Positions 1 through 44,899 of a stretch of 44,899 nucleotides of DNA are shown here, piece after piece; the stretch's first letter is position 1, and each line of letters begins with the position of its first letter. The translations under genes were made by a program, and so were the position numbers. The DNA lies in sequence record KX534341.1; one strand, given 5' to 3'. The stretch is from Escherichia phage Pride. A model generated the notes under the pieces. It was not told the origin of the DNA, made no database searches, and saw only the letters and a list, made by a program, of their open reading frames with translations.

Positions 1-120
1 ACCACCAGACCGATAACCAGTCCGATCGCTGCATATTTAATCACGCCATAACCCCCGGTTTTTAAGCTGTGCAATAGTCATCAGTTCGCCAGAATCGGTA
101 AACATCTTCGGCACTTTCAC
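1..120. repeat. Inverted fold-back copy: 1..120 is the exact reverse complement of 182..301, joined at a short palindromic microhomology (gccgcgc/gcgcggc); probable assembly or chimeric-read artefact
   Basis: Direct comparison of bases: position i pairs with 302-i for i=1..127; match breaks at 128/174. Confidence 0.8.
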
Positions 121-501
121 GCCGCGCCATATTCTGGAGGAGTTATATGGAGTGCAACGCGCCGACCAGATTATGCGCGGCGTGAAAGTGCCGAAGATGT
201 TTACCGATTCTGGCGAACTGATGACTATTGCACAGCTTAAAAACCGGGGGTTATGGCGTGATTAAATATGCAGCGATCGGACTGGTTATCGGTCTGGTGG
301 TAGGATTCTGGCAGGGTGATTCCTACCGAGCTGCCGTTGTGGCGAGAGCATCGCAAGAAGCGCAAGCGAAAGCCCAACGGCAGCAAACTAAGGTTGTCGA
401 GGGGGCTGTGCAGGCAGAACAGGCCCGCGATGTGGAATACCGGACTATCACGAAAGAGGTTGTGAAATATGTTACGCGTCCTAACCGTCCTGATTGCAGT
501 T
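121..501. repeat. Terminal direct repeat, identical to 44519..44899 (offset 44,398 bp); marks circular assembly overlap or terminal redundancy
   Basis: Base-by-base identity of window start and end; position 120 differs from 44518 so the repeat begins at 121. Confidence 0.9.
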
Positions 502-566
502 TTGATGCTGAGCGCGTGCGGATCAAGCAAAGCGCCATTGATGCCGCTAACCGAGTCGGTCTATAG
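258..566 (+). CDS. i-spanin (Rz-like inner-membrane spanin component)
   Basis: N-terminal TM segment (IKYAAIGLVIGLVVGFW) followed by a charged Q/A/K/E-rich region; 3' end overlapped by a lipoprotein ORF in another frame (classic Rz/Rz1 architecture); GTG 258 with GGGGG upstream chosen over TTG 228. Confidence 0.6.
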   Translation: MIKYAAIGLVIGLVVGFWQGDSYRAAVVARASQEAQAKAQRQQTKVVEGAVQAEQARDVEYRTITKEVVKYVTRPNRPDCSFDAERVRIKQSAIDAANRVGL

Positions 567-699
567 ACCGCCTTGCACCTTTGAGAATGCCTCGGCAGAT
601 CCAGACGAAGACTTGCTGGTTGATGTTAAGAATATGGAGTGTGGTGCGAAGCTGCGGGCGCAAGTGCTGGAGTTGCAGAAAATAATTCGGGGGCCGTGA
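469..699 (+). CDS. o-spanin (Rz1-like outer-membrane lipoprotein)
   Basis: ATG 469 with AGAGG RBS; signal peptide with lipobox (LMLSAC); Pro-rich mature part; embedded in the 3' end of the i-spanin gene. Confidence 0.65.
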   Translation: MLRVLTVLIAVLMLSACGSSKAPLMPLTESVYRPPCTFENASADPDEDLLVDVKNMECGAKLRAQVLELQKIIRGP

Positions 700-713
700 T
701 GGCCCCCTTTTCG
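690..713. terminator. Hairpin (gggggcc-gtgat-ggccccc) plus T-run between convergent genes; probable bidirectional intrinsic terminator
   Basis: GC stem 7 bp followed by ttttcg on plus strand; lies between o-spanin stop (699) and minus-strand gene stop (714). Confidence 0.5.
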
Positions 714-1478
714 TTAGCGCGGAATACCGCAAATCTCGTTTAGTGTTTTCACGTCCAGCGCCACCGCCGTGGACTTCGGCTTGTCCGGGTAAGGAATGAA
801 CTGTTCAACTTCAGGCCACGCCTTGATCAGCTTCTTATCTGTATTGTGCATATCCAGCACGCCGGTAACAGTTAGTTTGAACGCGTCATACTTAGCACGC
901 AACTCACGGCGGGCCTTGTCGTTACGGTCCAGGCGCTTGCAGAAATCATGACCCGCCGGGTAGTCTATACGACCGCGTGGCTTATATATCGGCAGCGCTT
1001 TCCCGTCGTCGTCGACTTCGCACACTGACGCTAACAAAATTTCCTCATACCCTGGCACAATATCGCCGAGATCGGGGGATAGTTTATTCATGTATTTATA
1101 CTCCCAGTATCCTCGATGTACTCGGAATCGGTATCCGTCTCCGCTCAATGACACGGTACGGACGTTTCCGCCTGCGTTGATTTCGAAAGTGGCGTCGTAA
1201 ACGCTGCCTATACCATATGGGTTGTCGTCGTCATGTCTATACGTCGCCTTGTTGGTGTATACGCTTACTCCGTACATCTGCGACGGGTCATCGCCGATTG
1301 CTTTAATGCGCGAGAGTAGCTCGGCGAAAGTGCGAATGCCTTCCGGCATACAGTCCAGCGTAATGGCGTACGCCAGATTTCGAGAGTCCATCATGATTGA
1401 TTTGGCTTCGGTCGCGATTTCGTGGTCGCGCAGGATGTTAGCCAGAATCTGGTTTTTAATGTCTTTCGTCAGTCTCAT
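714..1478 (-). CDS. Hypothetical protein (254 aa) encoded opposite to the flanking morphogenesis genes; function unknown
   Basis: Long ORF; start ATG at 1478 (MRLTKDIKNQ...) with GAGGAC RBS; own promoter of the ATTGGTTGCA class immediately upstream. Confidence 0.7.
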   Translation of the reverse strand: MRLTKDIKNQILANILRDHEIATEAKSIMMDSRNLAYAITLDCMPEGIRTFAELLSRIKAIGDDPSQMYGVSVYTNKATYRHDDDNPYGIGSVYDATFEINAGGNVRTVSLSGDGYRFRVHRGYWEYKYMNKLSPDLGDIVPGYEEILLASVCEVDDDGKALPIYKPRGRIDYPAGHDFCKRLDRNDKARRELRAKYDAFKLTVTGVLDMHNTDKKLIKAWPEVEQFIPYPDKPKSTAVALDVKTLNEICGIPR

Positions 1479-1507
1479 TTGTGTGTCCTCGTTGTTGGTG
1501 TGCAACC

Positions 1508-1537
1508 AATATAGTGCAACCAATACGAGGATTGCAA
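1508..1537 (-). promoter_or_regulatory. Predicted sigma70-type promoter (TTGCAA-N18-TATATT) for the 714..1478 gene, containing two tandem ATTGGTTGCAC motifs
   Basis: -35 at 1532..1537 and -10 at 1508..1513 on minus strand; -10 plus leader (TATATTGGTTGCACACCAACAA.GAGGAC) nearly identical to that at 35773..35798. Confidence 0.45.
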
Positions 1538-1627
1538 GCGAATTTTGCGATTATTTTTATCGCTGATAATATTAGAAGCGTGAAGTCGAGCGGGTGGCCT
1601 GCTCTGCCACAATCCCAGGGGGATAGC

Positions 1628-2332
1628 ATGAAACTTACTAAAGCAGAATATGACGCGTTGCCGGAAGGTATGAAGGCGCTTTTTGTTGCCGATGGTGACG
1701 GGTATAAGTCAACGTTCATGACCGCAGAAGAAGTACAGGCGGAAATCAAGGGTCTGAAAGACAACAACGCGAAGCTGGTGAGCGAGAAGAAAGCAGAAGC
1801 TGAACGCCGCGCCGAAGCTGAGCGCCTTGCGAAAGAGAAAGAGGAAGCCGCCGCGCGCAAAAATGGCGACCTCGAAGCGATCGACAAGTCCTGGAAGGAT
1901 AAGTTTGCGAAACACGAAGCAGACACATCGGGAAAAATCGAAGCCTACCGCAAGCAGATCCACGATCTAACCATCGGCAGCGCTGCCAAAGACCTGGCAT
2001 CGAAGCTATTCGGTAAGAATGCGGGCATCATGCAACGCCACGTAATGGACCGCCTGACGCTGGAAGACGGCGAAGACGGCAGCTTGAAAGTGCGTGTCTT
2101 GCAGGATGGCAAACCGTCCGCGCTGACTATGGAAGAGCTTGAAAAAGAGTTCCGTAATAACGCCGATTTTGCATCCGTCCTGGCTGGCACGCCAGCCGGT
2201 GGCGCGCCTAGCAAACCGACGCAGGTTGTCGAAGATGTGAAGTCGAAAATCTCTATGGGCCACAGCTTCGGTATCACTGACCTTACGAAACAGGCAGGTG
2301 AAATCATCGCTAAGATGGGCGACGACGAGTAA
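1628..2332 (+). CDS. Putative scaffolding protein
   Basis: ATG 1628 with AGGGGGA RBS (table ORF begins earlier at 1481 with no plausible start); charged, coiled-coil-like composition; located immediately upstream of major capsid gene. Confidence 0.5.
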   Translation: MKLTKAEYDALPEGMKALFVADGDGYKSTFMTAEEVQAEIKGLKDNNAKLVSEKKAEAERRAEAERLAKEKEEAAARKNGDLEAIDKSWKDKFAKHEADTSGKIEAYRKQIHDLTIGSAAKDLASKLFGKNAGIMQRHVMDRLTLEDGEDGSLKVRVLQDGKPSALTMEELEKEFRNNADFASVLAGTPAGGAPSKPTQVVEDVKSKISMGHSFGITDLTKQAGEIIAKMGDDE

Positions 2333-2337
2333 GCAGA

Positions 2338-2361
2338 TTGCCCGCGAAAGCGGGCAATTTT
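2338..2361 (+). terminator. Weak intrinsic terminator or attenuator hairpin (ttgcccgc-gaaa-gcgggcaa-tttt)
   Basis: 8-bp GC-rich stem with GAAA loop and a short T-run, after the scaffold stop. Confidence 0.35.
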
Positions 2362-2429
2362 GCGAGCGCGTAAATCTAAGGTAACATTAACGTCACTGGG
2401 CGAATGCTCACAACTCAAAGGATTTCGAT

Positions 2430-3530
2430 ATGTCTTTAACAGTGTTCCAGCGTAAACTCGTTACCGCGGTTACGCAAATGATCCCCGACAACCTGAACGT
2501 TTTCAACGCCGCCGCCAATGGCGCTGTTGTTCTCGGTACTGGTGAAGTGCTGAAGGATGTTGTTGAGAAAATGTCCGTAGGCTTGATCGCCAACCTTGTT
2601 ACCGACCGTAACGCCTACGCCCCTGTCGGCACTCCGGCAACCGCTAAAGTGCTGGCGCGTATGCTGACCAACTCCGTTAACCTTTCCGCGAAAGTGGGTC
2701 CGGTAGCAATCACTAAGGCCATGATGGCTAAAATCGAAACCAACGTTAACAGCGTTGCGGCTGAGATTGCGGCGCAGGCTACTCAAGCGATTTTGCTGCA
2801 TTACCTAAAAGCTGGTATCGGTGCGGGTAAAGCGGCGATCGAAAGCAACGCAGCGGCAAAATACACCCAACCGGCGCGCGTTGACGGCGTTGGCGGTCGT
2901 ACCTTCCCGACCCTGGCAGACTTCCCGCTGGCGGCTTCTAAGTTCGGCGATCAGGCGTCTTTGATTAAGTCCTGGTTTATGGACGGCGTTACCTGGGCAA
3001 ACTTCATTGCGTACCAGGCACTCCCTTCCGCTGAACAGGTATTCGCAATTGGCGATCTCCAGGTAATGGGTGATGGCCTGGGCCGTCGCTTCATTATCTC
3101 CGATGCCGCTGCCGATGCTATGGGCGCTGGTAACATGCTGGGTCTGGTCCCTGGCGCGGTTGCAGTTACGACCAACGGCCTCGACATGCTGGCGCAGGAA
3201 AAAGGCGGCAACGAGAACATTGAGCGCTGGTGGCAGGGTGAGTTCGACTTCAACGTGGCTGTTAAAGGCTACCGTCTGAAGGCGTCCGCTCGTACCCCGA
3301 TCGAAGGTGTACGCTCGTTCAAACTGGACGATATCACCACTTCCGCTAACTGGGAACTGGATCAGGGCCAGGTAGACAACGCACCGGCAACCGTGCAGGA
3401 TGTTGGCGCTGTGGGTGATGGCGATACTAAAGGCCGTCGTAAGACCCAGGCCGCACAGGCAGTGCCTACCCGCCACATCAAGGAAACCGCTGGCGTACTG
3501 GTTACGCTGACGGCGACTACCGCGTCTTAA
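2430..3530 (+). CDS. Major capsid protein (putative)
   Basis: 366-aa ORF with AAAGGA RBS, between scaffold and head-tail connector genes, followed by a strong terminator; assignment by position and size. Confidence 0.65.
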   Translation: MSLTVFQRKLVTAVTQMIPDNLNVFNAAANGAVVLGTGEVLKDVVEKMSVGLIANLVTDRNAYAPVGTPATAKVLARMLTNSVNLSAKVGPVAITKAMMAKIETNVNSVAAEIAAQATQAILLHYLKAGIGAGKAAIESNAAAKYTQPARVDGVGGRTFPTLADFPLAASKFGDQASLIKSWFMDGVTWANFIAYQALPSAEQVFAIGDLQVMGDGLGRRFIISDAAADAMGAGNMLGLVPGAVAVTTNGLDMLAQEKGGNENIERWWQGEFDFNVAVKGYRLKASARTPIEGVRSFKLDDITTSANWELDQGQVDNAPATVQDVGAVGDGDTKGRRKTQAAQAVPTRHIKETAGVLVTLTATTAS

Positions 3531-3548
3531 CGGGCGCACATCCCAAAT

Positions 3549-10758: not shown

Positions 10759-11543
10759 ATAAACTCTATCGTGAAGCGACGCGCTTTGACCCCTCAGGAC
10801 GCGTTCGCCTGATTCACATTGACGCGCAGGACGTGGAACCCGGAGACGGCGCGATCGGCGCGGGCCACCACTATTTTCATTACTGCTTTATCCCACACAC
10901 TGCGGAGGATATCGCTGCCGCGGGTGGTGACGAGGATAAGCTAAAACCTAAATCAATCTTCTTCGGCGGGCAGGAGTTCGAATTTTGGCCCTTCGATTTG
11001 TCCGGCCTTAACTTTTCCACATCGACGGCAGCAGAACCGCAACTAACAATCGTCGATATTGGCGGCATAATAACCCGGCTGTCACTGAATCACGACCAGC
11101 TACTGGGCGCGAAGGTTGAAATAATCGACACATTCGCGAAGTTCCTGGATAACGGGTCGGACCCAGACCCGACGCAGAAACGAGTGCAGGAGTATTACAT
11201 CGACTCGCAGGTCGGGCGCAATCCAGGCAAGCAAATCACCTTCGCACTATCCTCCCCCGCGGATATGGAAGGGCAGGTCGTTCCCCGTCGCCAGATCATG
11301 AACATGTGCGAATGGGCGCTCAACGGGAAGTACGCCAGCGGGGACGGTTGCACATGGAACCTTGCACAGCCTGGAATAAAGTATTACGACGAGCGAGGTA
11401 ATGAAGTCATCGCAATGAATATGGACCGATGCGGCGGCTGTTTGTCCGACTGCTATCTTCGTTTTGGGCAAGGGCTTGCGGATCCTAAAGCTGCGGTGCT
11501 GGACTTCGGTGGTTTTCCTGGGTCCAAATTAATCAAGGGGTAG
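10755..11543 (+). CDS. Minor tail protein (lambda L-like)
   Basis: Position in M-L-K-I-J order; C-terminal Cys cluster (CEW..C..MDRCGGCLSDC) consistent with the Fe-S motif of gpL. Confidence 0.75.
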   Translation: MNKLYREATRFDPSGRVRLIHIDAQDVEPGDGAIGAGHHYFHYCFIPHTAEDIAAAGGDEDKLKPKSIFFGGQEFEFWPFDLSGLNFSTSTAAEPQLTIVDIGGIITRLSLNHDQLLGAKVEIIDTFAKFLDNGSDPDPTQKRVQEYYIDSQVGRNPGKQITFALSSPADMEGQVVPRRQIMNMCEWALNGKYASGDGCTWNLAQPGIKYYDERGNEVIAMNMDRCGGCLSDCYLRFGQGLADPKAAVLDFGGFPGSKLIKG

Positions 11544-17326: not shown

Positions 17327-17344
17327 AAGCCCCGAAAGGGGCTT
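17327..17344. terminator. Bidirectional terminator hairpin (aagcccc-gaaa-ggggctt) between convergent genes
   Basis: Stem-loop flanked by T-rich sequence on both strands; overlaps stop of minus-strand lipoprotein gene. Confidence 0.5.
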
Positions 17345-17561
17345 ATTTGCAGGTTGTGCTTTTGAAATGGTCTACAGACACGTACTGGAAGCTAAACGGA
17401 TAACCCGCCCTTAGCATTTTATGCCCGGAGAAGTCCGCAACACCATACACAGGTACCGCATAATCCATGCCGCTATTCTGGTATGTGGCGTCGCAGACTT
17501 TAGCGGGCATGTTGGCACAACCGGACAAAAGAACCGCACAAATCATAATTAAAGTTTTCAT
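17343..17561 (-). CDS. Small outer-membrane lipoprotein moron (72 aa); candidate superinfection-exclusion protein (Cor/Llp-like)
   Basis: ATG at 17561 with AGGAGA RBS; signal peptide plus lipobox (MKTLIMICAVLLSGC); opposite strand inside tail module; own promoter. Confidence 0.65.
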   Translation of the reverse strand: MKTLIMICAVLLSGCANMPAKVCDATYQNSGMDYAVPVYGVADFSGHKMLRAGYPFSFQYVSVDHFKSTTCK

Positions 17562-20061: not shown

Positions 20062-20616
20062 TTATTTCAGTGCGCTACGTACCAGTGTTTTTTCCATGTT
20101 GCGGAAGTCTTCCGGCGTCATGAGGATTTTGGACCCATCCTCTCCAGTGAGCACGACCATAGGCTGGACGTCCTGGGCCGCTACGCCGAAATTGGCGGCT
20201 TTGACAGTCTTCCCGAACGAGGCCACCACACCTTCGGCAACGCGCATCGCACTGTTATACGCATTAATCTCGCCATCTAGTCGTACGGACAGGTCTTTGA
20301 GGCTGTCGAATTGTGCTGCCGTTGTGTCGATCTGGATCTCGTCATGCACGGTCATGTACGACTCGCCCAGCAGTGCGGCATATGCTACCAGGTCAACGAT
20401 GTTATCGTCCTGGTGCTTACGGTGCTGGCGTACCAGCTTCAGGCAGATCAAGAAGGTCCAGGCTTCTTGCTCGGTCAGGTCGCGACCGGTAAGCGCGTTA
20501 AACACGTCAGCGATCTGTTTAGCGCTACGCTCTTCTTTCGCGTTGTCATAGCCGTTTTCTTTTCCGCGCTGTTCCATAGTGGTGGCGGCGTTTTTGCAGT
20601 ATTCGTATGCTTTCAT
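20062..20616 (-). CDS. Hypothetical protein
   Basis: ORF; ATG 20616 with AAGGA RBS preferred over 20640; promoter immediately upstream. Confidence 0.6.
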   Translation of the reverse strand: MKAYEYCKNAATTMEQRGKENGYDNAKEERSAKQIADVFNALTGRDLTEQEAWTFLICLKLVRQHRKHQDDNIVDLVAYAALLGESYMTVHDEIQIDTTAAQFDSLKDLSVRLDGEINAYNSAMRVAEGVVASFGKTVKAANFGVAAQDVQPMVVLTGEDGSKILMTPEDFRNMEKTLVRSALK

Positions 20617-20629
20617 TATGTGGTCCTTT

Positions 20630-21145
20630 TTAGGGGCCATATCGCCCCGACGAGTTAACTATAGTGCAACCAATAGGTTGGTTGCAAGTAAATTTTGCAA
20701 CGTTTATCGCATAAATTTTCGAGACCAGATCGCTGCACGCCCGTCGAATGGCCGCGATGTTCTTCGGGCAGTCTTCAATGATGACCAGTTCCGATACGTC
20801 CGCATAGCAGACCATTTTGAACACGGCGCACGCTTTAAACTCTGGCGGCGGGGTATCGTCCAGCATGTGGCGCATAAACAACCGGCCTACGGGGAATACT
20901 TCCAATTGCTCGACGGTAGTCTCCCAGCATTCTCGCTGCCGGTTGGTCAGATACGCGATCTCGAAGCCTTGCTCTTTGTACATGGTCAGCAGCGGCAGCA
21001 TATCCATGTTCAGATCTTCGCGTATATGCGCTTTGTGCCACTTCGCCCAAAAGGTGGATTTTGTTTTTATACCTGGCACCAGGTCGGCACGCGCATCGCT
21101 TGAACCATTAATAACGCCATCAAGATCACAAATCAGTAGTTTCAT
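20630..21145 (-). CDS. HAD-superfamily hydrolase-like protein (putative phosphatase/nucleotidase)
   Basis: N-terminal DxDG motif (ICDLDGVI), downstream T/S (LTNR) and acidic (IIEDCPKN) motifs. Confidence 0.5.
   Translation of the reverse strand: MKLLICDLDGVINGSSDARADLVPGIKTKSTFWAKWHKAHIREDLNMDMLPLLTMYKEQGFEIAYLTNRQRECWETTVEQLEVFPVGRLFMRHMLDDTPPPEFKACAVFKMVCYADVSELVIIEDCPKNIAAIRRACSDLVSKIYAINVAKFTCNQPIGCTIVNSSGRYGP
20658..20687 (-). promoter_or_regulatory. Predicted promoter (TTGCAA-N18-TATAGT) within palindrome TGCAACCAA-TAGG-TTGGTTGCA
   Basis: -35 20682..20687, -10 20658..20663 on minus strand; same architecture as the 1508..1537 promoter. Confidence 0.45.
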
Positions 21146-21366: not shown

Positions 21367-21832
21367 GGAGTTCTCCTTCGCTCATTATTTCAATTTGTGC
21401 GCTGCCGGTTGGTGGCGCTTCGTCAAATATTATCAATTGCTGGCACTTGTTATTGCTCGGCCCGACTTCACCGGTGACAGCGTGTATAAATCTCACCCGC
21501 CAGTCCAGAAGAATTATCATATTGGCAGTCTTCCGGGCCAACTTCGCCCACTTCGTCGACGTGTCCTGATTCAGTAGCATGACAGTCCGGCGACCGTGCG
21601 CTGCGCATTCCACCCACGGCAGCGGGTCGGAATACGGCGGATTGCACCACTTCCACCCTTTCAAATCAGCCCAGTCCACATCAAGCGCGCTATGTTCTGC
21701 TGTGAAGTAACGCGGTAGCAGGTGGTTGGCATCGCTTGCCGCCATATCGTAACGGAATCGGTATTTCCGACGAAGCGGTTTGAATAAAGCTGGCGGCGTG
21801 CGCCAGCTATCTTTTTGCTCACTCTTCTGCAT
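21347..21832 (-). CDS. DNA N6-adenine methyltransferase (phage Dam-like)
   Basis: NPPY catalytic motif (WCNPPYS) and N-terminal SWRTPP region typical of the small phage Dam family as recalled from memory. Confidence 0.65.
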   Translation of the reverse strand: MQKSEQKDSWRTPPALFKPLRRKYRFRYDMAASDANHLLPRYFTAEHSALDVDWADLKGWKWCNPPYSDPLPWVECAAHGRRTVMLLNQDTSTKWAKLARKTANMIILLDWRVRFIHAVTGEVGPSNNKCQQLIIFDEAPPTGSAQIEIMSEGELLEYLNR

Positions 21833-22283
21833 GACCTGGATCTATCGCGTATAAAGGGACTTTATTGCCGGTTTTCATAACGCGCTGGACGCGCTTTGAC
21901 TCCTCGGCGCTCATTGGGCGCATATCAGTGCTATAACCACCGTTTGATGTGTGCCGCCACGCTATCAGCACCAGATCTTTCCGGTCGATCTTAGACTGGC
22001 GGCCCTTCGGTCGCACGTACGCCTCGGCCCGTTTGCAATGCTCGCGCAGACCTTCGGCAGTGATGCGGTTTAGCGCGACGGTGGTTGTGTACCCGGTGCG
22101 CTGCATAATACCCATCAACCCATACAGCAGTTCGAAGCGCTCCTCTAACTCCTTGCGCATCTTTTCCTCGCCTTCATAGCTCGCCAGGTAGGTATCCGCC
22201 AGCGCGTTCGCCCGTTCGACCTGTTCGCGGGCTTCGAGGCATTGCGCGGCCCAGTAATTTTTCTCTTCTTGTAAAATTTTCAT
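21819..22283 (-). CDS. Hypothetical protein
   Basis: ORF with promoter of ATTGGTTGCA class upstream. Confidence 0.6.
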   Translation of the reverse strand: MKILQEEKNYWAAQCLEAREQVERANALADTYLASYEGEEKMRKELEERFELLYGLMGIMQRTGYTTTVALNRITAEGLREHCKRAEAYVRPKGRQSKIDRKDLVLIAWRHTSNGGYSTDMRPMSAEESKRVQRVMKTGNKVPLYAIDPGHAEE

Positions 22284-25067: not shown

Positions 25068-25241
25068 TTATTTTTGTTCTGCACGGTAGCGGCGCTGCCG
25101 TTCGCGCTCTTTTTTATTGCGGCACGATTTGCACTCTGCCCGATACCCGTCTGGACTTCGCGCAGTCTTACCGGTGTATTTGTGGAACTGGGATAGCGGC
25201 TTTACACAGCCGCAATTACTACAACGTTTTTCTTCAATCAT
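25068..25241 (-). CDS. Small zinc-ribbon protein (CxxC...CxxC plus basic tail)
   Basis: ATG 25241 with GAGGA RBS; CSNCGC...CKSCRNKK pattern resembles the N-terminal zinc-ribbon repeats of the neighbouring HNH protein. Confidence 0.5.
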   Translation of the reverse strand: MIEEKRCSNCGCVKPLSQFHKYTGKTARSPDGYRAECKSCRNKKERERQRRYRAEQK

Positions 25242-32462: not shown

Positions 32463-32492
32463 ATGATAGATTGGTTGCAGGATGGGTGTCAA
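32463..32492 (-). promoter_or_regulatory. Predicted leftward early promoter (TTGACA-N18-TATCAT) with GCAACCAAT motif in spacer
   Basis: -35 at 32487..32492 and -10 at 32463..32468 on minus strand; upstream of minus operon beginning at 32266. Confidence 0.5.
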
Positions 32493-33008: not shown

Positions 33009-35273
33009 ATGAGCTTAATTAAATTCGCTGTAACAAGACCCGCTAAAAAAGGCGAAAAAGCCAGGGCGGAAAACTTCCAGATGACGACCGATGAATTTTT
33101 CGAATTTATCAAAGATGCGAAAGAGATATCGTCGGTGCATATCAACAAGACGGAAGATAAAGCCGAGTATGCGCGCCGCAAGCGTAAGGCCGATGGCATC
33201 GTAGCGTATACCAGTGACGGCTTACGCCGCAAGACCAGTGCGGTGGACCGCTCGATCCTGTTCTTCGATATTGACCGTACCGACACCCGCACCCTACGCC
33301 GCTGCCGTAAGGCTTTCATCGACGCGGGGCTGGAGCACGTATTTCACACCACAACCGGCGACCGCCACCCGCTGAAAGGCGGCACGCGTTGCGCTCGTTT
33401 CCTGGTGCTCACCGACAAGCCTGTACCGGCTGAAGACCTGGGCCGCGTCCAGTACGCACTATTACACCAACTGGGCCTGTCAGATGTGGACTTCGATGAT
33501 TGTACGAAAGACACAAACCGCCTGATGTACCTGCCACACCAGCAGTCTGTTATTAAGTGCCACTACGGCAAGCGTGCCCGCGTCCGTCGTCTGCTTCGCC
33601 TGGCGGATAAGTTGGGCGTGGAGAAGGAGGAAGTACGCCGCGAGCTTACCCAGGGCGACGACGCAGTGGCAGACGGCATTCTGGACTGGTGCTTCCAGGC
33701 AGGATTCGAGGAGTTATCTTCCGGTCGCGGTTATGAAGTGCCGTGCCCGAACGAACATCTGCACAGCGGCGAAGGGTCGACGGCTATCATGGTCAAGGAT
33801 GGCGAGATCCGTTTCAAGTGTATGCACACCGGCAACGAGTGTTGCTCGGAACTGAACAGACACCAGCACCTGGCGCTACGTCTTATCGGGATCCCGGACC
33901 ACCTGAACGTCGAGCCGCACAACATGTCACGTAAGCAAATCGCCGCCATCCTTCCGGGACTGGACGATGAGGAAGTGGAATCGTGCTATGAACATATCGT
34001 TGATGCGGTCGGAGACGGCGACGAGTACGGCGTGTGTACTGATGCAGACCTGGACAACGAGCCGGTCGCACTGTTCAGTAAGCACGACCCGATCATCGAA
34101 GGCCTGGTCAACTTCAAATCGACCTGGTATCTCGCCGGTGAGTCGAACATTGGCAAGTCGTTCTACGTGCTGGGCCAGATGGCGTCAGTATCTGCCGGTA
34201 TTCCGTTCGGCGGTGCGAAGGTCGTCCAGTCTCATTGCTTCTATTTCGATGCGGAAGGTGGTGAGGCCTCCAACCAGCGTAAAGAAGCACTGCAGATCAA
34301 ATATGAGCACGACCTGGACAAGCTGCACATTATCGATCTGCAATCACGCGGCTGGGATATCACCAGCAAATCCGGCTTGCGTGAAGTTATCAGCTTCATC
34401 AACCGCACCGCTAACGGCGAGCCGGTTGGCCTGGTGGCGTTCGACTCACTCAACCAGACTGTTGCGCTGCGGTCCGCCGATGCAAAACCGTTCGACGAGA
34501 ATAACGCCAGCGATATGGGTGAAGTGGTCAAAGCGCTGAAGGCCATTGCGGAAAATACAGGCGGCAGTGCGGGCGTCATCCACCACCCGGCGAAGGGTGC
34601 AAACGGCAGCAGATCTCCCCGTGGGTCCGGCGCGCTGCATGGCGCTGTCGATTCTGCGTTCTTCCTGGAACAGCCGGACGACAACCAGCCAGGTCAACTC
34701 AACCTGTATCACGAAAAATCCCGTAACGGCATCAAGCAAGCGCCGCGCGGCTTCGTCCTGCTCAAGTGCAAGGTTAAGGTGGATCTCCGCAAGTCCGAGG
34801 CGTTCGAAGCCCACCAGTCCACCAGCACCGGGCCGGACTTCGGTGACGTCGTTGCCGGTTGGGACGTCAAGCCGATTGCCTCCACGCCACGCGACGAGAC
34901 TCTTTACCTCGTACCGGTCGCCCTGGCACCGTTCGCCATTGAGCAGGCAAAGGCCGCTGGCAAGGCCGCAGTTAAGGAAGAGAACGCCGCAGGACCGCGC
35001 AACGAAAAAGAGAAAGTGCTTTATGCAGCGCTGGAAAAACTGATGGAAGATAACCCGGACCATACCGGATTCAGCAAATCGGCAATTGTCCGCCAGGCTG
35101 GGCTTGCGAAAGGTGGCACATCGACGAAGGCAATTGACGATATGGTCGAGCGCGGCGTGCTCGGTTTTTATACCGATCCGCACACCGGGGCCATCTATGG
35201 GTCGTCGAATATCGTCATCAAAACGAAGATACCCATCACGCTTTCGGCGACCGATGACGACTTAAAAGATTAA
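33009..35273 (+). CDS. Bifunctional DNA primase / replicative helicase (primase-polymerase-like N-terminus, zinc ribbon, RecA/DnaB-like ATPase)
   Basis: ILFFDIDRTD acidic motif; Cys/His zinc cluster (CPNEHLH...CMHTGNEC); Walker A GESNIGKS; VIHHPAKG. Confidence 0.75.
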   Translation: MSLIKFAVTRPAKKGEKARAENFQMTTDEFFEFIKDAKEISSVHINKTEDKAEYARRKRKADGIVAYTSDGLRRKTSAVDRSILFFDIDRTDTRTLRRCRKAFIDAGLEHVFHTTTGDRHPLKGGTRCARFLVLTDKPVPAEDLGRVQYALLHQLGLSDVDFDDCTKDTNRLMYLPHQQSVIKCHYGKRARVRRLLRLADKLGVEKEEVRRELTQGDDAVADGILDWCFQAGFEELSSGRGYEVPCPNEHLHSGEGSTAIMVKDGEIRFKCMHTGNECCSELNRHQHLALRLIGIPDHLNVEPHNMSRKQIAAILPGLDDEEVESCYEHIVDAVGDGDEYGVCTDADLDNEPVALFSKHDPIIEGLVNFKSTWYLAGESNIGKSFYVLGQMASVSAGIPFGGAKVVQSHCFYFDAEGGEASNQRKEALQIKYEHDLDKLHIIDLQSRGWDITSKSGLREVISFINRTANGEPVGLVAFDSLNQTVALRSADAKPFDENNASDMGEVVKALKAIAENTGGSAGVIHHPAKGANGSRSPRGSGALHGAVDSAFFLEQPDDNQPGQLNLYHEKSRNGIKQAPRGFVLLKCKVKVDLRKSEAFEAHQSTSTGPDFGDVVAGWDVKPIASTPRDETLYLVPVALAPFAIEQAKAAGKAAVKEENAAGPRNEKEKVLYAALEKLMEDNPDHTGFSKSAIVRQAGLAKGGTSTKAIDDMVERGVLGFYTDPHTGAIYGSSNIVIKTKIPITLSATDDDLKD

Positions 35274-35410
35274 AATTTGCGCGCATTGGTCGCCGATATG
35301 GGGATTCCCATATCGCTAGACGATTAAATTTTGCGCGCATTGGTTGCCATTTTGAGTGTTTTTATCTGGTCGTATTGGTTGCCGTGTAGTGTGAATATAG
35401 TGAATAGTTA

Positions 35411-35592
35411 TGCAGTTTTATTGCATAAAGTAAGCGGGACAAAAAGCGGGACAAACAAGGGGCGGGACAAAGCGGGACAGCACCCCCGTCCCGCCACGGA
35501 TGGCGCGGCTTCCAGAGGAGCGGGACAGCGGGACAGCACCCCAGTCTTTCAGACTAGACGGGGGTCAATGGCCCCCCTCGTCTGAGACTGAA
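35411..35592. repeat. GGGACA-array element, copy B (homologous to 7256..7413), preceded by direct repeats TTGCGCGCATTGGT(C/T)GCC at 35271..35294 and 35325..35350
   Basis: Four GCGGGACA direct repeats, GGGACAGCGGGACAGCACCCCAGTCTTTCAGACTAGACGGGGG...CCCCCCTCGTCTGAGACTG conserved in both copies. Confidence 0.8.
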
Positions 35593-35749
35593 TAAAATCC
35601 GGGGATTGCAAAATACACGGCAGCATGATGCTAAGTGCGGTCGTCGATGAACTAGGCAACCAATGCAGGTTGTATTATGCTGAGTGAAAATGCGGTTTGC
35701 AGTCACAGCAGATAGCGATCAACTTTTTCATGCGCGTGATTAATATTGG

Positions 35750-35778
35750 TTGCACCCTGCCTGGCGCCCTGCTATATT
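35750..35778 (+). promoter_or_regulatory. Predicted promoter (TTGCAC-N17-TATATT) with two ATTGGTTGCAC motifs
   Basis: -35 35750..35755, -10 35773..35778; -10 and leader nearly identical to the promoter of the 714..1478 gene. Confidence 0.5.
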
Positions 35779-35806
35779 GGTTGCACACCAACAAGAGGAC
35801 TGAACG

Positions 35807-36112
35807 ATGAAAGCATTAATCTGGAATTACACATCAGCGGTCGCAGCGCTCTATGAAGCGAAGCACACAAACGGCAACGCCGACCACGCACGCCAGGCTG
35901 TAATGTTCGCGCAGCAGGCAATCTTTGCAGCGTTCGACAACATGGGCGTCAGCCTGGATGAACTGGAACCATTGCGTGTGGCAATCTGCGAGTATGCGAT
36001 GAAATTCGCCCGTGAGCGTCTTGCGTACCGGTTTGGCATCGGAGAGACGGCAGTGACTAACATCGCTCGCATCACGGCTCAGCGTGAGCTGCACGCCTTA
36101 CTTGCGAAATAA
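35807..36112 (+). CDS. Hypothetical protein
   Basis: ORF with AAGAGGA RBS. Confidence 0.6.
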   Translation: MKALIWNYTSAVAALYEAKHTNGNADHARQAVMFAQQAIFAAFDNMGVSLDELEPLRVAICEYAMKFARERLAYRFGIGETAVTNIARITAQRELHALLAK

Positions 36113-43576: not shown

Positions 43577-44663
43577 TCAACATTTGGCGGATCGAATGAT
43601 TCGCCGTCACATCTTCACCCAGCGCCTGAGCAATGATCAGGCGCGGAGGGTGCTGGCTATGTGGGAGAAGTTCCGGCCCACTTTACTTGGTAAGCTGACC
43701 GAGTTACTTGATGGCAAAAAGTCCATGAGCAACAAGGCACTTACCACACTGTTAACGCAACTCGACAAGACCGTCAAAACGGAACTGCGCGCCGAGTTTA
43801 AAGTGCTGGCGGATAGTCTTCAGGAGTTTGCCGACACCGAGGCCGATTACCTCGCCGACACATTAACGGCAGCGATCCAGCCGGTGGTCGCCGTACCTGC
43901 GGTCGAGGTGGTGGGTGTAGTAACAGGCGCGCAGGTCGCAGCGACTGCGATGAAAAACCCGTTCCAGGGTAACACCATGATGCAATGGCCGGATTCACTT
44001 TCAGAGTGGACAAGGACGCAGATCGGCAATCAGGTGCGCGCCGGATTCATCCAGGGCAAGCCGACTATGGAAATTATCGCGGACGTGAGGCGCGCGCTCG
44101 GCGGTCGTAGTGCGCAAGCAATCTCAAGCGTTGTTAAGTCCGCTGTCAACCACTATGCGGCGACCGCCCGCGAATTAATGGTGAAAGCTAATGACGATAT
44201 TCTCGAAGGTCGCCAATGGTTGGCCACATTGGACACTCATACTTCCCCTATGTGCCAGCTACGCGATCGCCTGTTTTATCCTGTTGACGTCACTCCCGAC
44301 ACCAAAGGAAAACGCGGCGGGAAAGTGGTGGCGGGATCACAATATGGCGCTGGTCCGGGCAAGCTGCATTATTGCTGCCGTTCGACGGAGACGTGGAAAG
44401 TTAAGGGCATGGAAGACTGGCCCAGTGGTAAGCGTCCGGCACTGAAGGCTGACGCAGGCAGATTGCTGAGTGAGCAGGTAGACGCGCAGACTGATTTCTT
44501 CTCATGGGTGCAGCGCCAGCCGCGCCATATTCTGGAGGAGTTATATGGAGTGCAACGCGCCGACCAGATTATGCGCGGCGTGAAAGTGCCGAAGATGTTT
44601 ACCGATTCTGGCGAACTGATGACTATTGCACAGCTTAAAAACCGGGGGTTATGGCGTGATTAA
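43560..44663 (+). CDS. Head morphogenesis protein (Mu F / SPP1 gp7-like minor head protein)
   Basis: Position after portal; WLATLDTHTSPMCQ motif typical of the minor head protein family. Confidence 0.7.
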   Translation: MSKTINQHLADRMIRRHIFTQRLSNDQARRVLAMWEKFRPTLLGKLTELLDGKKSMSNKALTTLLTQLDKTVKTELRAEFKVLADSLQEFADTEADYLADTLTAAIQPVVAVPAVEVVGVVTGAQVAATAMKNPFQGNTMMQWPDSLSEWTRTQIGNQVRAGFIQGKPTMEIIADVRRALGGRSAQAISSVVKSAVNHYAATARELMVKANDDILEGRQWLATLDTHTSPMCQLRDRLFYPVDVTPDTKGKRGGKVVAGSQYGAGPGKLHYCCRSTETWKVKGMEDWPSGKRPALKADAGRLLSEQVDAQTDFFSWVQRQPRHILEELYGVQRADQIMRGVKVPKMFTDSGELMTIAQLKNRGLWRD

Positions 44664-44899
44664 ATATGCAGCGATCGGACTGGTTATCGGTCTGGTGGTA
44701 GGATTCTGGCAGGGTGATTCCTACCGAGCTGCCGTTGTGGCGAGAGCATCGCAAGAAGCGCAAGCGAAAGCCCAACGGCAGCAAACTAAGGTTGTCGAGG
44801 GGGCTGTGCAGGCAGAACAGGCCCGCGATGTGGAATACCGGACTATCACGAAAGAGGTTGTGAAATATGTTACGCGTCCTAACCGTCCTGATTGCAGTT
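44519..44899. repeat. Terminal direct repeat, second copy (identical to 121..501)
   Basis: Base identity with window start. Confidence 0.9.
44656..44899 (+). CDS. i-spanin, duplicate partial copy in terminal repeat (truncated by window end)
   Basis: Identical to 258..501. Confidence 0.5.
   Translation, partial: MIKYAAIGLVIGLVVGFWQGDSYRAAVVARASQEAQAKAQRQQTKVVEGAVQAEQARDVEYRTITKEVVKYVTRPNRPDCS

Follow-up and report, generated by a model that had tools for sequence, protein, structure and literature searches.

Why should one gene be read against the direction of its neighbours in the middle of a phage's late genes? The question is raised by bases 714-1537 of Escherichia phage Pride (sequence record KX534341.1), whose 44,899 bases we analysed in full and refer to below as the window, and where a 254-amino-acid (aa) open reading frame (ORF) lies antisense between spanin/packaging genes and head genes; these flanks had been described in the original prediction on this DNA, and the ORF list and the annotation bear them out. 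The window comprises the whole genome, circularly permuted, of a Dhillonvirus, one of the virulent siphoviruses of E. coli. We find that the antisense ORF is nmad5, a gene already known under that name, its exact protein and its genetics both being public, and that it appears to constitute a transcription unit of its own, directed against the morphogenesis genes and made up of a promoter, a GAGGA Shine-Dalgarno sequence, the coding sequence (CDS) and a shared hairpin terminator. As to what the product does, the chances seem to us evenly balanced that it is an early, dispensable effector which acts by binding, through a conserved patch drawn from its N and C termini.

The length of an ORF is in itself no proof of a gene, since a 244-aa antisense ORF is also found inside the capsid gene (2805..3539). 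That nmad5 is a real gene follows instead from a full-length Pfam match, a low ratio of nonsynonymous to synonymous substitution (dN/dS) and the existence of homologues in unrelated phages. The match to Pfam family Nmad5 (PF18757) takes in residues 1-253 of the protein and positions 1-206 of the 206 in the profile (E = 4.2e-54; 184.2 bits against a cut-off of 27), and the protein also matches PHROG 1965. Across 12 orthologues, dN/dS is 0.12 overall (0.08, 0.17 and 0.05 in the N-terminal, middle and C-terminal thirds), that is, the gene is under purifying selection. A spurious antisense ORF is ruled out by this ratio and by the homology, as the original prediction had supposed in treating the 254-aa ORF as a gene. 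Its statement that no family could be assigned by eye no longer holds; the family is Nmad5, and the same protein, 100% identical, is already in GenBank as Gluttony gp40 and Envy gp39. The mechanically called ORF is longer (714..1523 on the reverse strand, with a TTG start and 269 aa), and that TTG falls within the promoter; the functional start is the ATG at 1478. In EE09 (L025, 2501-3262) the nmad5 start codon reads AAG instead of ATG, and a shorter CDS has been annotated from an internal methionine. This may be a sequencing error, or it may be a genuine N-terminal truncation that removes the conserved residues R2 and L3.

Both ends of the transcription unit are consensus-level calls backed by conservation in relatives. 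As a bare match, TTGCAA-18-TATATT is not significant (3 found against 2.3 expected in shuffled sequence), but the promoter block is present in 12 of 12 relatives, including those with a further gene inserted behind it. The end of the originally predicted interval, base 1537, coincides exactly with the first position of the -35 hexamer. The -10 hexamer and the leader together make up a 22-nucleotide (nt) block, TATATTGGTTGCACACCAACAA, which occurs exactly at two sites only in the window, upstream of nmad5 and upstream of gene 35807 (whose 101-aa product belongs to PHROG 9839), where 0 are expected in 100 shuffles; in a pairwise alignment the likeness of the two leaders runs on through GAGGA with one indel. 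The pair of ATTGGTTGCAC copies in the nmad5 promoter is a candidate operator or promoter-class element. At the other end, the G+C-rich hairpin lies 6 nt past the nmad5 stop codon, and its stem begins inside the spanin ORF, 11 nt short of where that ORF ends (699). It reads as a putative bidirectional intrinsic terminator, common to the convergent spanin and nmad5 units. Because nmad5 is antisense to both neighbouring operons, it could not be transcribed from either. Thus, the near-identical leader of gene 35807 and the independent promotion that had been claimed for this ORF are both borne out, the former by 22 identical bases followed by GAGGA and the latter by a promoter block and a hairpin terminator of its own.

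At 1546-1580 on the forward strand, in the interval from the nmad5 promoter to the scaffold gene, there is a pair of small palindromes, GCGATTATTTTTATCGC and CGCTGATAATATTAGAAGCG; the divergent intergenic region around them is well conserved in relatives. This region may hold a head-operon promoter or a regulator site, in which case the cassette would mark the boundary of two late transcription units.

The nmad5 promoter is one of a set. The 9-mer ATTGGTTGC is present in 14 copies in the window against 0.54 expected, and at six places it lies no more than 60 nt upstream of a start codon. The layout at these six is ATTGG-TTGCAx, a spacer of about 17 nt and TATAxT, frequently accompanied by another ATTGGTTGC copy that falls within the spacer or covers the start site. 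Besides nmad5 and gene 35807, the genes concerned are a Cor-like superinfection-exclusion gene, a Lar-like restriction-alleviation gene, a DUF6378 gene and a gp05-like gene (our feature list labels the six nmad5, Cor-like, Lar-like, gp01-like, gp05-like and gp23-like). Of the leftward early promoters, the strongest (TTGACA-18-TATCAT, 32492..32463) also has ATTGGTTGC in its spacer, in inverted orientation, and the motif is clustered in a 540-base noncoding region adjoining the primase-helicase gene, beside GCGGGACA repeats. On sequence evidence, the set appears to be a real class, and it takes in genes with known host-interaction roles; the sites suggest a shared promoter or operator class, in which ATTGGTTGC would be either simply an extension of the -35 element or else an operator bound by a phage regulator. 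The noncoding region between the primase-helicase gene and gene 35807 (35260-35800) is packed with repeats, GCGGGACA(A/G) being present four to six times and CGCATTGGTTGCC-type units three times, besides several inverted repeats, and is a candidate replication origin or regulatory hub.

Of the early-class promoter originally predicted, then, the class and the shared leader are real, whereas "early" cannot be read from the sequence alone. It is comparison with other phages that makes early expression plausible, since orthologues in related phages head early replication operons and the lambdoid homologues stand just after N. In four metagenomic phages (L021, L026, L028 and L031), whose primase-helicase is 43-49% identical to that of the window, Nmad5 occupies one of the first three places in the operon running divergently from the helix-turn-helix and primase-helicase genes; L021 and L028 also share with the window the DUF2800 exonuclease (48-51%) and the single-stranded DNA-binding protein (SSB; 47-48%). 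In L021 and L031 the gene sits between homologues of the window's gp20 and gp19, a junction at which the window has no Nmad5, the gene being at 714-1478 instead. The head-region placement of the window is repeated in L029, where Nmad5 is 43% identical. Lambdoid and P22-like phages have a 207-aa homologue in the PL operon, where it follows immediately on N or cI, and in other temperate phages Nmad5 is found among early recombination and replication genes. Across the loci surveyed, its neighbours include DUF2800 exonuclease, Enc34-type SSB, PolA and SNF2 helicase genes in L021, L028 and L030, DEAD helicase, VRR_NUC and primase genes in L022, and a PDDEXK gene in L023. We infer that nmad5 belongs functionally with early DNA-metabolism and host-interaction genes rather than with head genes, that it is probably expressed early by the host RNA polymerase, and that the Dhillonviruses would have moved an early-class gene into a stand-alone cassette. 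Early expression, as originally predicted, is therefore plausible from operon placement in relatives and from the lambdoid PL position; the infected-cell proteome of EE09, in which only four phage proteins were detected, is uninformative on timing.

How does this arrangement compare with a moron, the label that the original prediction had given to the gene? Morons of lambdoid phages, a concept said to go back to Juhala and colleagues in 2000 and to Hendrix, are reportedly independent units of promoter, gene and terminator inserted in a late operon. The architecture of the nmad5 locus fits this description, with a promoter and a terminator of its own between late genes and with growth possible in the absence of the gene. 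Unlike a moron, nmad5 is neither sporadic nor atypical in composition. It is near-universal in the genus (about 149 phage records at 60% identity or more), it is carried by a virulent phage, it is under strong purifying selection, and its G+C content at third codon positions (GC3) is 0.612 against 0.613 in the scaffold and capsid genes, making it compositionally native. A recently acquired horizontal island was rejected on account of this native GC3. What behaves as a moron is only the optional gene upstream of it. Among 12 Dhillonvirus loci that we compared (the slot genes coming from L008, L009, L012-L015 and L017-L019), an extra gene lies between the conserved promoter and nmad5 in 8, separating the two by 0.2-0.6 kb, and at least four unrelated genes use the slot in relatives; in the window, nmad5 stands directly behind the promoter. 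In most such loci a small GGGGCGAAAGCCCC hairpin follows the extra gene and precedes nmad5. nmad5 is the constant element of the cassette, and the variable element is the optional upstream gene.

Genetic data on nmad5 have been published for the Dhillonviruses SM_A8 and SMS22 (Yamashita et al. 2025, Commun Biol, PMC11846954) in connection with Tmn, a membrane KAP-family NTPase that acts as a defence system. Independent mutants that escaped Tmn carried a Lys-to-Glu change in Nmad5 (K216E in SM_A8 and the equivalent K296E in SMS22); reversion restored Tmn sensitivity, and introduction of the change conferred resistance. A phage with nmad5 deleted was viable and still restricted by Tmn, and attempts to clone nmad5 failed, apparently due to toxicity. 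A paper on synergy establishes neither a trigger nor a mechanism for Tmn. The Nmad5 of SM_A8 is 94% identical to the window protein over 254 residues and aligns with it without gaps, so the published K216E corresponds to K216 of the window. Given that gene and locus are the same in the two phages, with 94% identity and K216 conserved, the SM_A8 genetics should hold for the window gene, although SM_A8 and SM_W22 have an extra gene between promoter and nmad5 (104 aa and, as annotated, 172 aa, respectively) that the window lacks. Yamashita et al. term the protein a DNA modification enzyme, and for that our analysis found no support. nmad5 may have an anti-defence or host-takeover role, of the kind raised in the original prediction.

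The protein itself (about 29 kDa) is a single-domain member of a family with at least 522 clusters, or representatives, at 50% identity and a median length of 208 aa. The best 150 of the 522 representatives are all 251 aa or shorter and have no second domain, and a search with a profile of the C-terminal module recovered six short fragments and no fused architecture. The family signature (an R-L-T N terminus, a G...G hairpin, T-x-x-[KQR]-L-x3-W-P-E, and a C-terminal L-N-x-x-[CI]-G-[LI]-P) is complete in the window protein, as residues R2, L3, G104, G113, T213, K216, L217, W221, P222, E223, L246, N247, G251 and P253. Frequencies measured on 148 members show conservation of R2, L3, G104, T213, L217, W221, P222, E223, P229, L246, N247 (100%), G251 and P253; at position 250, Ile is as frequent as Cys. 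At position 216, next to L217 (98%), 90% of members have K, Q or R and none has an acidic residue. The Dhillonvirus proteins have about 50 extra residues (about 114-165), which are mixed, and mostly lower, in model confidence. AlphaFold models of the window protein (predicted local distance difference test [pLDDT] 77; predicted template modelling score [pTM] 0.74) and of a 224-aa relative, P0083 (pLDDT 86; pTM 0.78), agree in the order of their elements. Two long helices at the N terminus and a third are followed by short beta strands, in which the conserved glycines lie, and then by a very long helix; a pair of short helices comes next, and a linker of low confidence leads to one last short helix. 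In both models, a beta bridge is formed by the extreme N terminus, and the counterpart of T213 likewise has bridge conformation, which hints that the N- and C-terminal motifs may meet in space. The conserved residues look like a structural core plus a small conserved surface rather than a recognizable catalytic set.

Structure comparison, which had been suggested as a check on this ORF, led back to the family itself; all eight Foldseek matches in BFVD with E of 0.001 or less, each at probability 1.00, are either annotated as Nmad5 or unnamed phage proteins, and no other named family was found there below E = 1. The best hit of a profile search of Protein Data Bank sequences had an E of 4.7, and neither the PADLOC defence models nor the NCBIfam named families gave a match at E of 1 or less. 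One lead, a validated defence system with an "NMAD" domain in the DefensePredictor paper, was rejected, as the domain in question is Nmad2 (PF18753) and not Nmad5.

Our preferred explanation is that Nmad5 would not be an enzyme but would bind a partner associated with the host, with its defences or with replication, by means of a surface made up of the N terminus (R2-L3), T213-x-x-K216-L217-x3-W221-P222-E223, and the C-terminal helix L246-N247-x-x-C-G-x-P253. Such a binding model would account for dispensability in the laboratory host, for the apparent toxicity on cloning, and for a K216E change that allows escape by gain of function while deletion does not. T7 Ocr, lambda Ral and Rac Lar are first-expressed counter-defence or takeover proteins, and Nmad5 resembles them in position and proposed mode only (early, dispensable and acting, we propose, by binding); the Lar-like gene of the window has ATTGGTTGC in its promoter. 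There is no sequence or fold relation between these proteins and Nmad5, and the comparison is one of analogy, not of membership. Several points weigh against our explanation. The failure to recognize a fold or an active site is negative evidence only; a new enzyme fold could be present, with R2, T213, E223 and N247 as a small polar site. nmad5 is a genus-core gene with a low dN/dS, whereas many counter-defence genes are patchy and fast evolving. The M6-like homologue lies inside a thymidine hypermodification cluster, the source of the family name. A literature search found no study of transcript timing in a Dhillonvirus, and "early" is a prediction from comparison. Finally, the report of toxicity covers cloning efficiency only (PMC11846954).

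The name of the family and the terminology of Yamashita et al. imply something different, namely, that Nmad5 modifies DNA or nucleotides, either as an enzyme in its own right or as an indispensable subunit of one, and that the resulting mark on the phage genome is what Tmn senses. We regard this as quite improbable. It draws on the genomic association for which the family was named, the M6-like Yuavirus homologue being located between aGPT-Pplase1 and a thymidylate-synthase-like gene of a thymidine hypermodification cluster, on the two DNA methyltransferases encoded elsewhere in the window, and on the fact that a point mutation in nmad5 alters the outcome with Tmn (PMC11846954). The M6-like protein does share the family, the signature motifs and a C-terminal third that is about 37% identical, but it has 186 aa, lacks the extra residues of the Dhillonvirus protein and is set among aGPT-Pplase, 5-hydroxymethyldeoxyuridine (5-hmdU) kinase, radical-SAM, pyridoxal-phosphate-enzyme and thymidylate-synthase-like genes, none of which is in the window. 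A tblastn search with eight genes of the M6-like cluster against the window returned Nmad5 only (E = 2e-10; the others, E of 0.2 or more); co-located genes for a 5-hmdU DNA kinase, an aGPT-Pplase and a thymidylate-synthase-like hydroxymethylase were not found in the window, and the RefSeq annotation of the near-identical Gluttony does not list the M6 cluster enzymes. Most Nmad5 lineages, including the Dhillonviruses, the lambdoid and P22-like prophages and loci L021-L031, have no modification genes nearby, and we found neither an enzyme-like fold nor a set of catalytic residues of the Asp/His/Cys type. The paper on the M6 hypermodification pathway does not use the name Nmad5, nor did we find a role for the gene there; biochemical evidence of nucleotide or DNA modification was not found for any Nmad5 member, and the indirect tests were negative. 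Dhillonviruses have also been described as restriction-modification sensitive, as opposed to the 7-deazaguanine-modified Queuovirinae (PMC8594841), which we count against an enzyme. A Tmn that senses a mark made by Nmad5 is hard to reconcile with the fact that deletion of nmad5 leaves Tmn restriction in place, and a K216 charge reversal acting as a gain of function fits better with a changed binding interface than with the loss of a DNA mark. These negatives remove the sole argument for modification activity in this genome, without proving its absence, and the label "DNA modification enzyme" may be misleading.

A rather unlikely, though not negligible, alternative is that Nmad5 plays a dispensable accessory part in the replication or recombination of phage DNA (as an adaptor for primase-helicase, exonuclease, SSB or polymerase, or an origin-associated protein) and is not directed at the host. 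This would suit its consistent placement among replication and recombination genes (L021, L022, L023, L028 and L030), its strong purifying selection and genus-wide conservation, the beta-clamp-domain-like gene directly upstream of nmad5 in the L015 cassette, and the clustering of the ATTGGTTGC of its promoter in the iteron-rich noncoding region by the primase-helicase gene. Such neighbourhood evidence is weak, however, because genes of this kind make up most of the early operons in these phages, and lambdoid phages, which replicate by means of O, P and host proteins, carry Nmad5 in the PL accessory region and not in the replication region. Those lambdoid and P22-like homologues (in mEp235, APC_JM3.2 and Shiga toxin [Stx]-converting phages) share the family and a setting of early accessory genes with the window protein, to which they are 32% identical over residues 156-253; they differ in length, in belonging to temperate phages and in being transcribed from PL, and they are very abundant, their 90% cluster numbering 2,436 members in Escherichia and Salmonella. 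(In many records of Stx phages the homologue is unannotated, e.g., at 11143-11442 of LC616075.1.) Toxicity to uninfected cells and a gain of function involving a membrane NTPase defence are also not predicted by a replication factor, which in part overlaps with our preferred explanation, being likewise a binding protein. A role in head assembly or in the virion is close to refuted. It has position in its favour, which the 43% identical L029 relative keeps; against it are the opposite strand and separate promoter, the early operons in which homologues occur elsewhere, the viability of the deletion phage, and the absence of homology to structural families in Pfam, PHROG and fold searches. In addition, 24 proteins were detected in virion lysates of EE09, and these include the neighbours CDS28-30, 34 and 35 but not the orthologue itself (CDS32). 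The lack of a structural-gene signature remarked on in the original prediction is in keeping with these results.

The features discussed here are collected in the following table.

Positions of the features at and around nmad5 in the window, together with the genes that occupy the cassette slot in relatives
Feature	Position	Strand	Remarks
nmad5 CDS, 254 aa	714..1478	-	ATG 1478-1476, stop TAA 716-714; called from ORF list, Pfam, PHROG, identity and dN/dS; preceded by ATTGGTTGC
Shine-Dalgarno GAGGA	1486..1490	-	7 nt before ATG; read from sequence; same context after leader of gene 35807
22-nt block TATATTGGTTGCACACCAACAA (-10 hexamer and leader)	1492..1513	-	identical to 35773-35794 (+), upstream of gene 35807
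Two direct ATTGGTTGCAC copies, 14-nt spacing	1500..1524	-	1500-1510 and 1514-1524; promoter spacer and start region; candidate element
Predicted sigma-70-type promoter, TTGCAA (1537-1532)-18 nt-TATATT (1513-1508)	1508..1537	-	consensus scan; block kept in 12/12 Dhillonvirus loci
Hairpin GGGGGCC-N5-GGCCCCC, putative terminator	689..707	both	G+C rich; terminator-like on either strand in scan
Sister promoter and leader, TTGCAC-17-TATATT	35745..35794	+	two ATTGGTTGCAC copies; precedes gene 35807-36112
Gene 35807	35807-36112	+	preceded by ATTGGTTGC
ATTGGTTGC sites	1502, 1516, 17617, 20666, 22339, 22356, 25298, 32470, 35339, 35374, 35656, 35745, 35776, 36310		
Cor-like superinfection-exclusion gene	17343-17561	-	ATTGGTTGC promoter class
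DUF6378 gene	20062-20640	-	ATTGGTTGC promoter class
gp05-like gene	21819-22283	-	ATTGGTTGC promoter class
Lar-like restriction-alleviation gene	25068-25241	-	ATTGGTTGC promoter class
i-spanin gene	258-566	+	upstream flank of nmad5
o-spanin gene	469-699	+	upstream flank of nmad5
Scaffold gene	1628-2332	+	downstream flank of nmad5
Major capsid gene	2430-3530	+	downstream flank of nmad5
Slot gene, 104-aa protein			PHROG 24635
Slot gene, 135-aa orphan			annotated SM_W22 CDS longer, 172 aa
Slot gene, 53-aa ORF			
Slot gene, 172-aa protein			L015; weak beta-clamp-domain match (PF02767, E = 7e-4; PHROG 3007 and 947)

With regard to the genome as a whole, megablast gave 100% identity of bases 121-3000 to phages Lust and Gluttony and 98.4% to Envy and Sloth; the second half of the window is 98.4% identical to Gluttony. 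Since the genome is circularly permuted, the spanin genes at the start of the window follow, in biological order, on the terminase, portal and head-morphogenesis genes that close it. The final 381 bases (44519-44899) repeat bases 121-501 as a terminal overlap. Bases 1-120 are an exact inverted copy of 182-301, which has the look of a fold-back assembly artefact, and megablast matches to public genomes begin only at base 121. The o-spanin ORF from 469 overlaps the i-spanin gene and has a lipoprotein signal (LMLSAC); in the RefSeq record of Gluttony the o-spanin starts at the equivalent of 541, and the signal peptide is lost. An Rfam scan of bases 1-3000 found no RNA families.

Taken further, these observations lead to a broader proposal, which we put forward tentatively, as a possibility that may well prove wrong: Nmad5 would be a large, misnamed family of early binding effectors with an evolvable patch, in which K216E would retarget the protein so as to neutralize Tmn, and the Dhillonvirus gene would have moved to a stand-alone cassette with an insertion slot, under ATTGGTTGC control shared with the Cor-like and Lar-like genes. 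nmad5 is among the few phage genes that are genetically tied to the Tmn defence, and if the modification label is indeed misleading, then what should be looked for is a binding partner and early expression and not a modified base. The conserved promoter with its variable slot, together with the ATTGGTTGC class, may be of use in engineering therapeutic Dhillonviruses. Members of the family abound in enterobacterial prophages, and near-identical copies number in the thousands in those of Escherichia and Salmonella, so that a function for Nmad5 would annotate thousands of genes.

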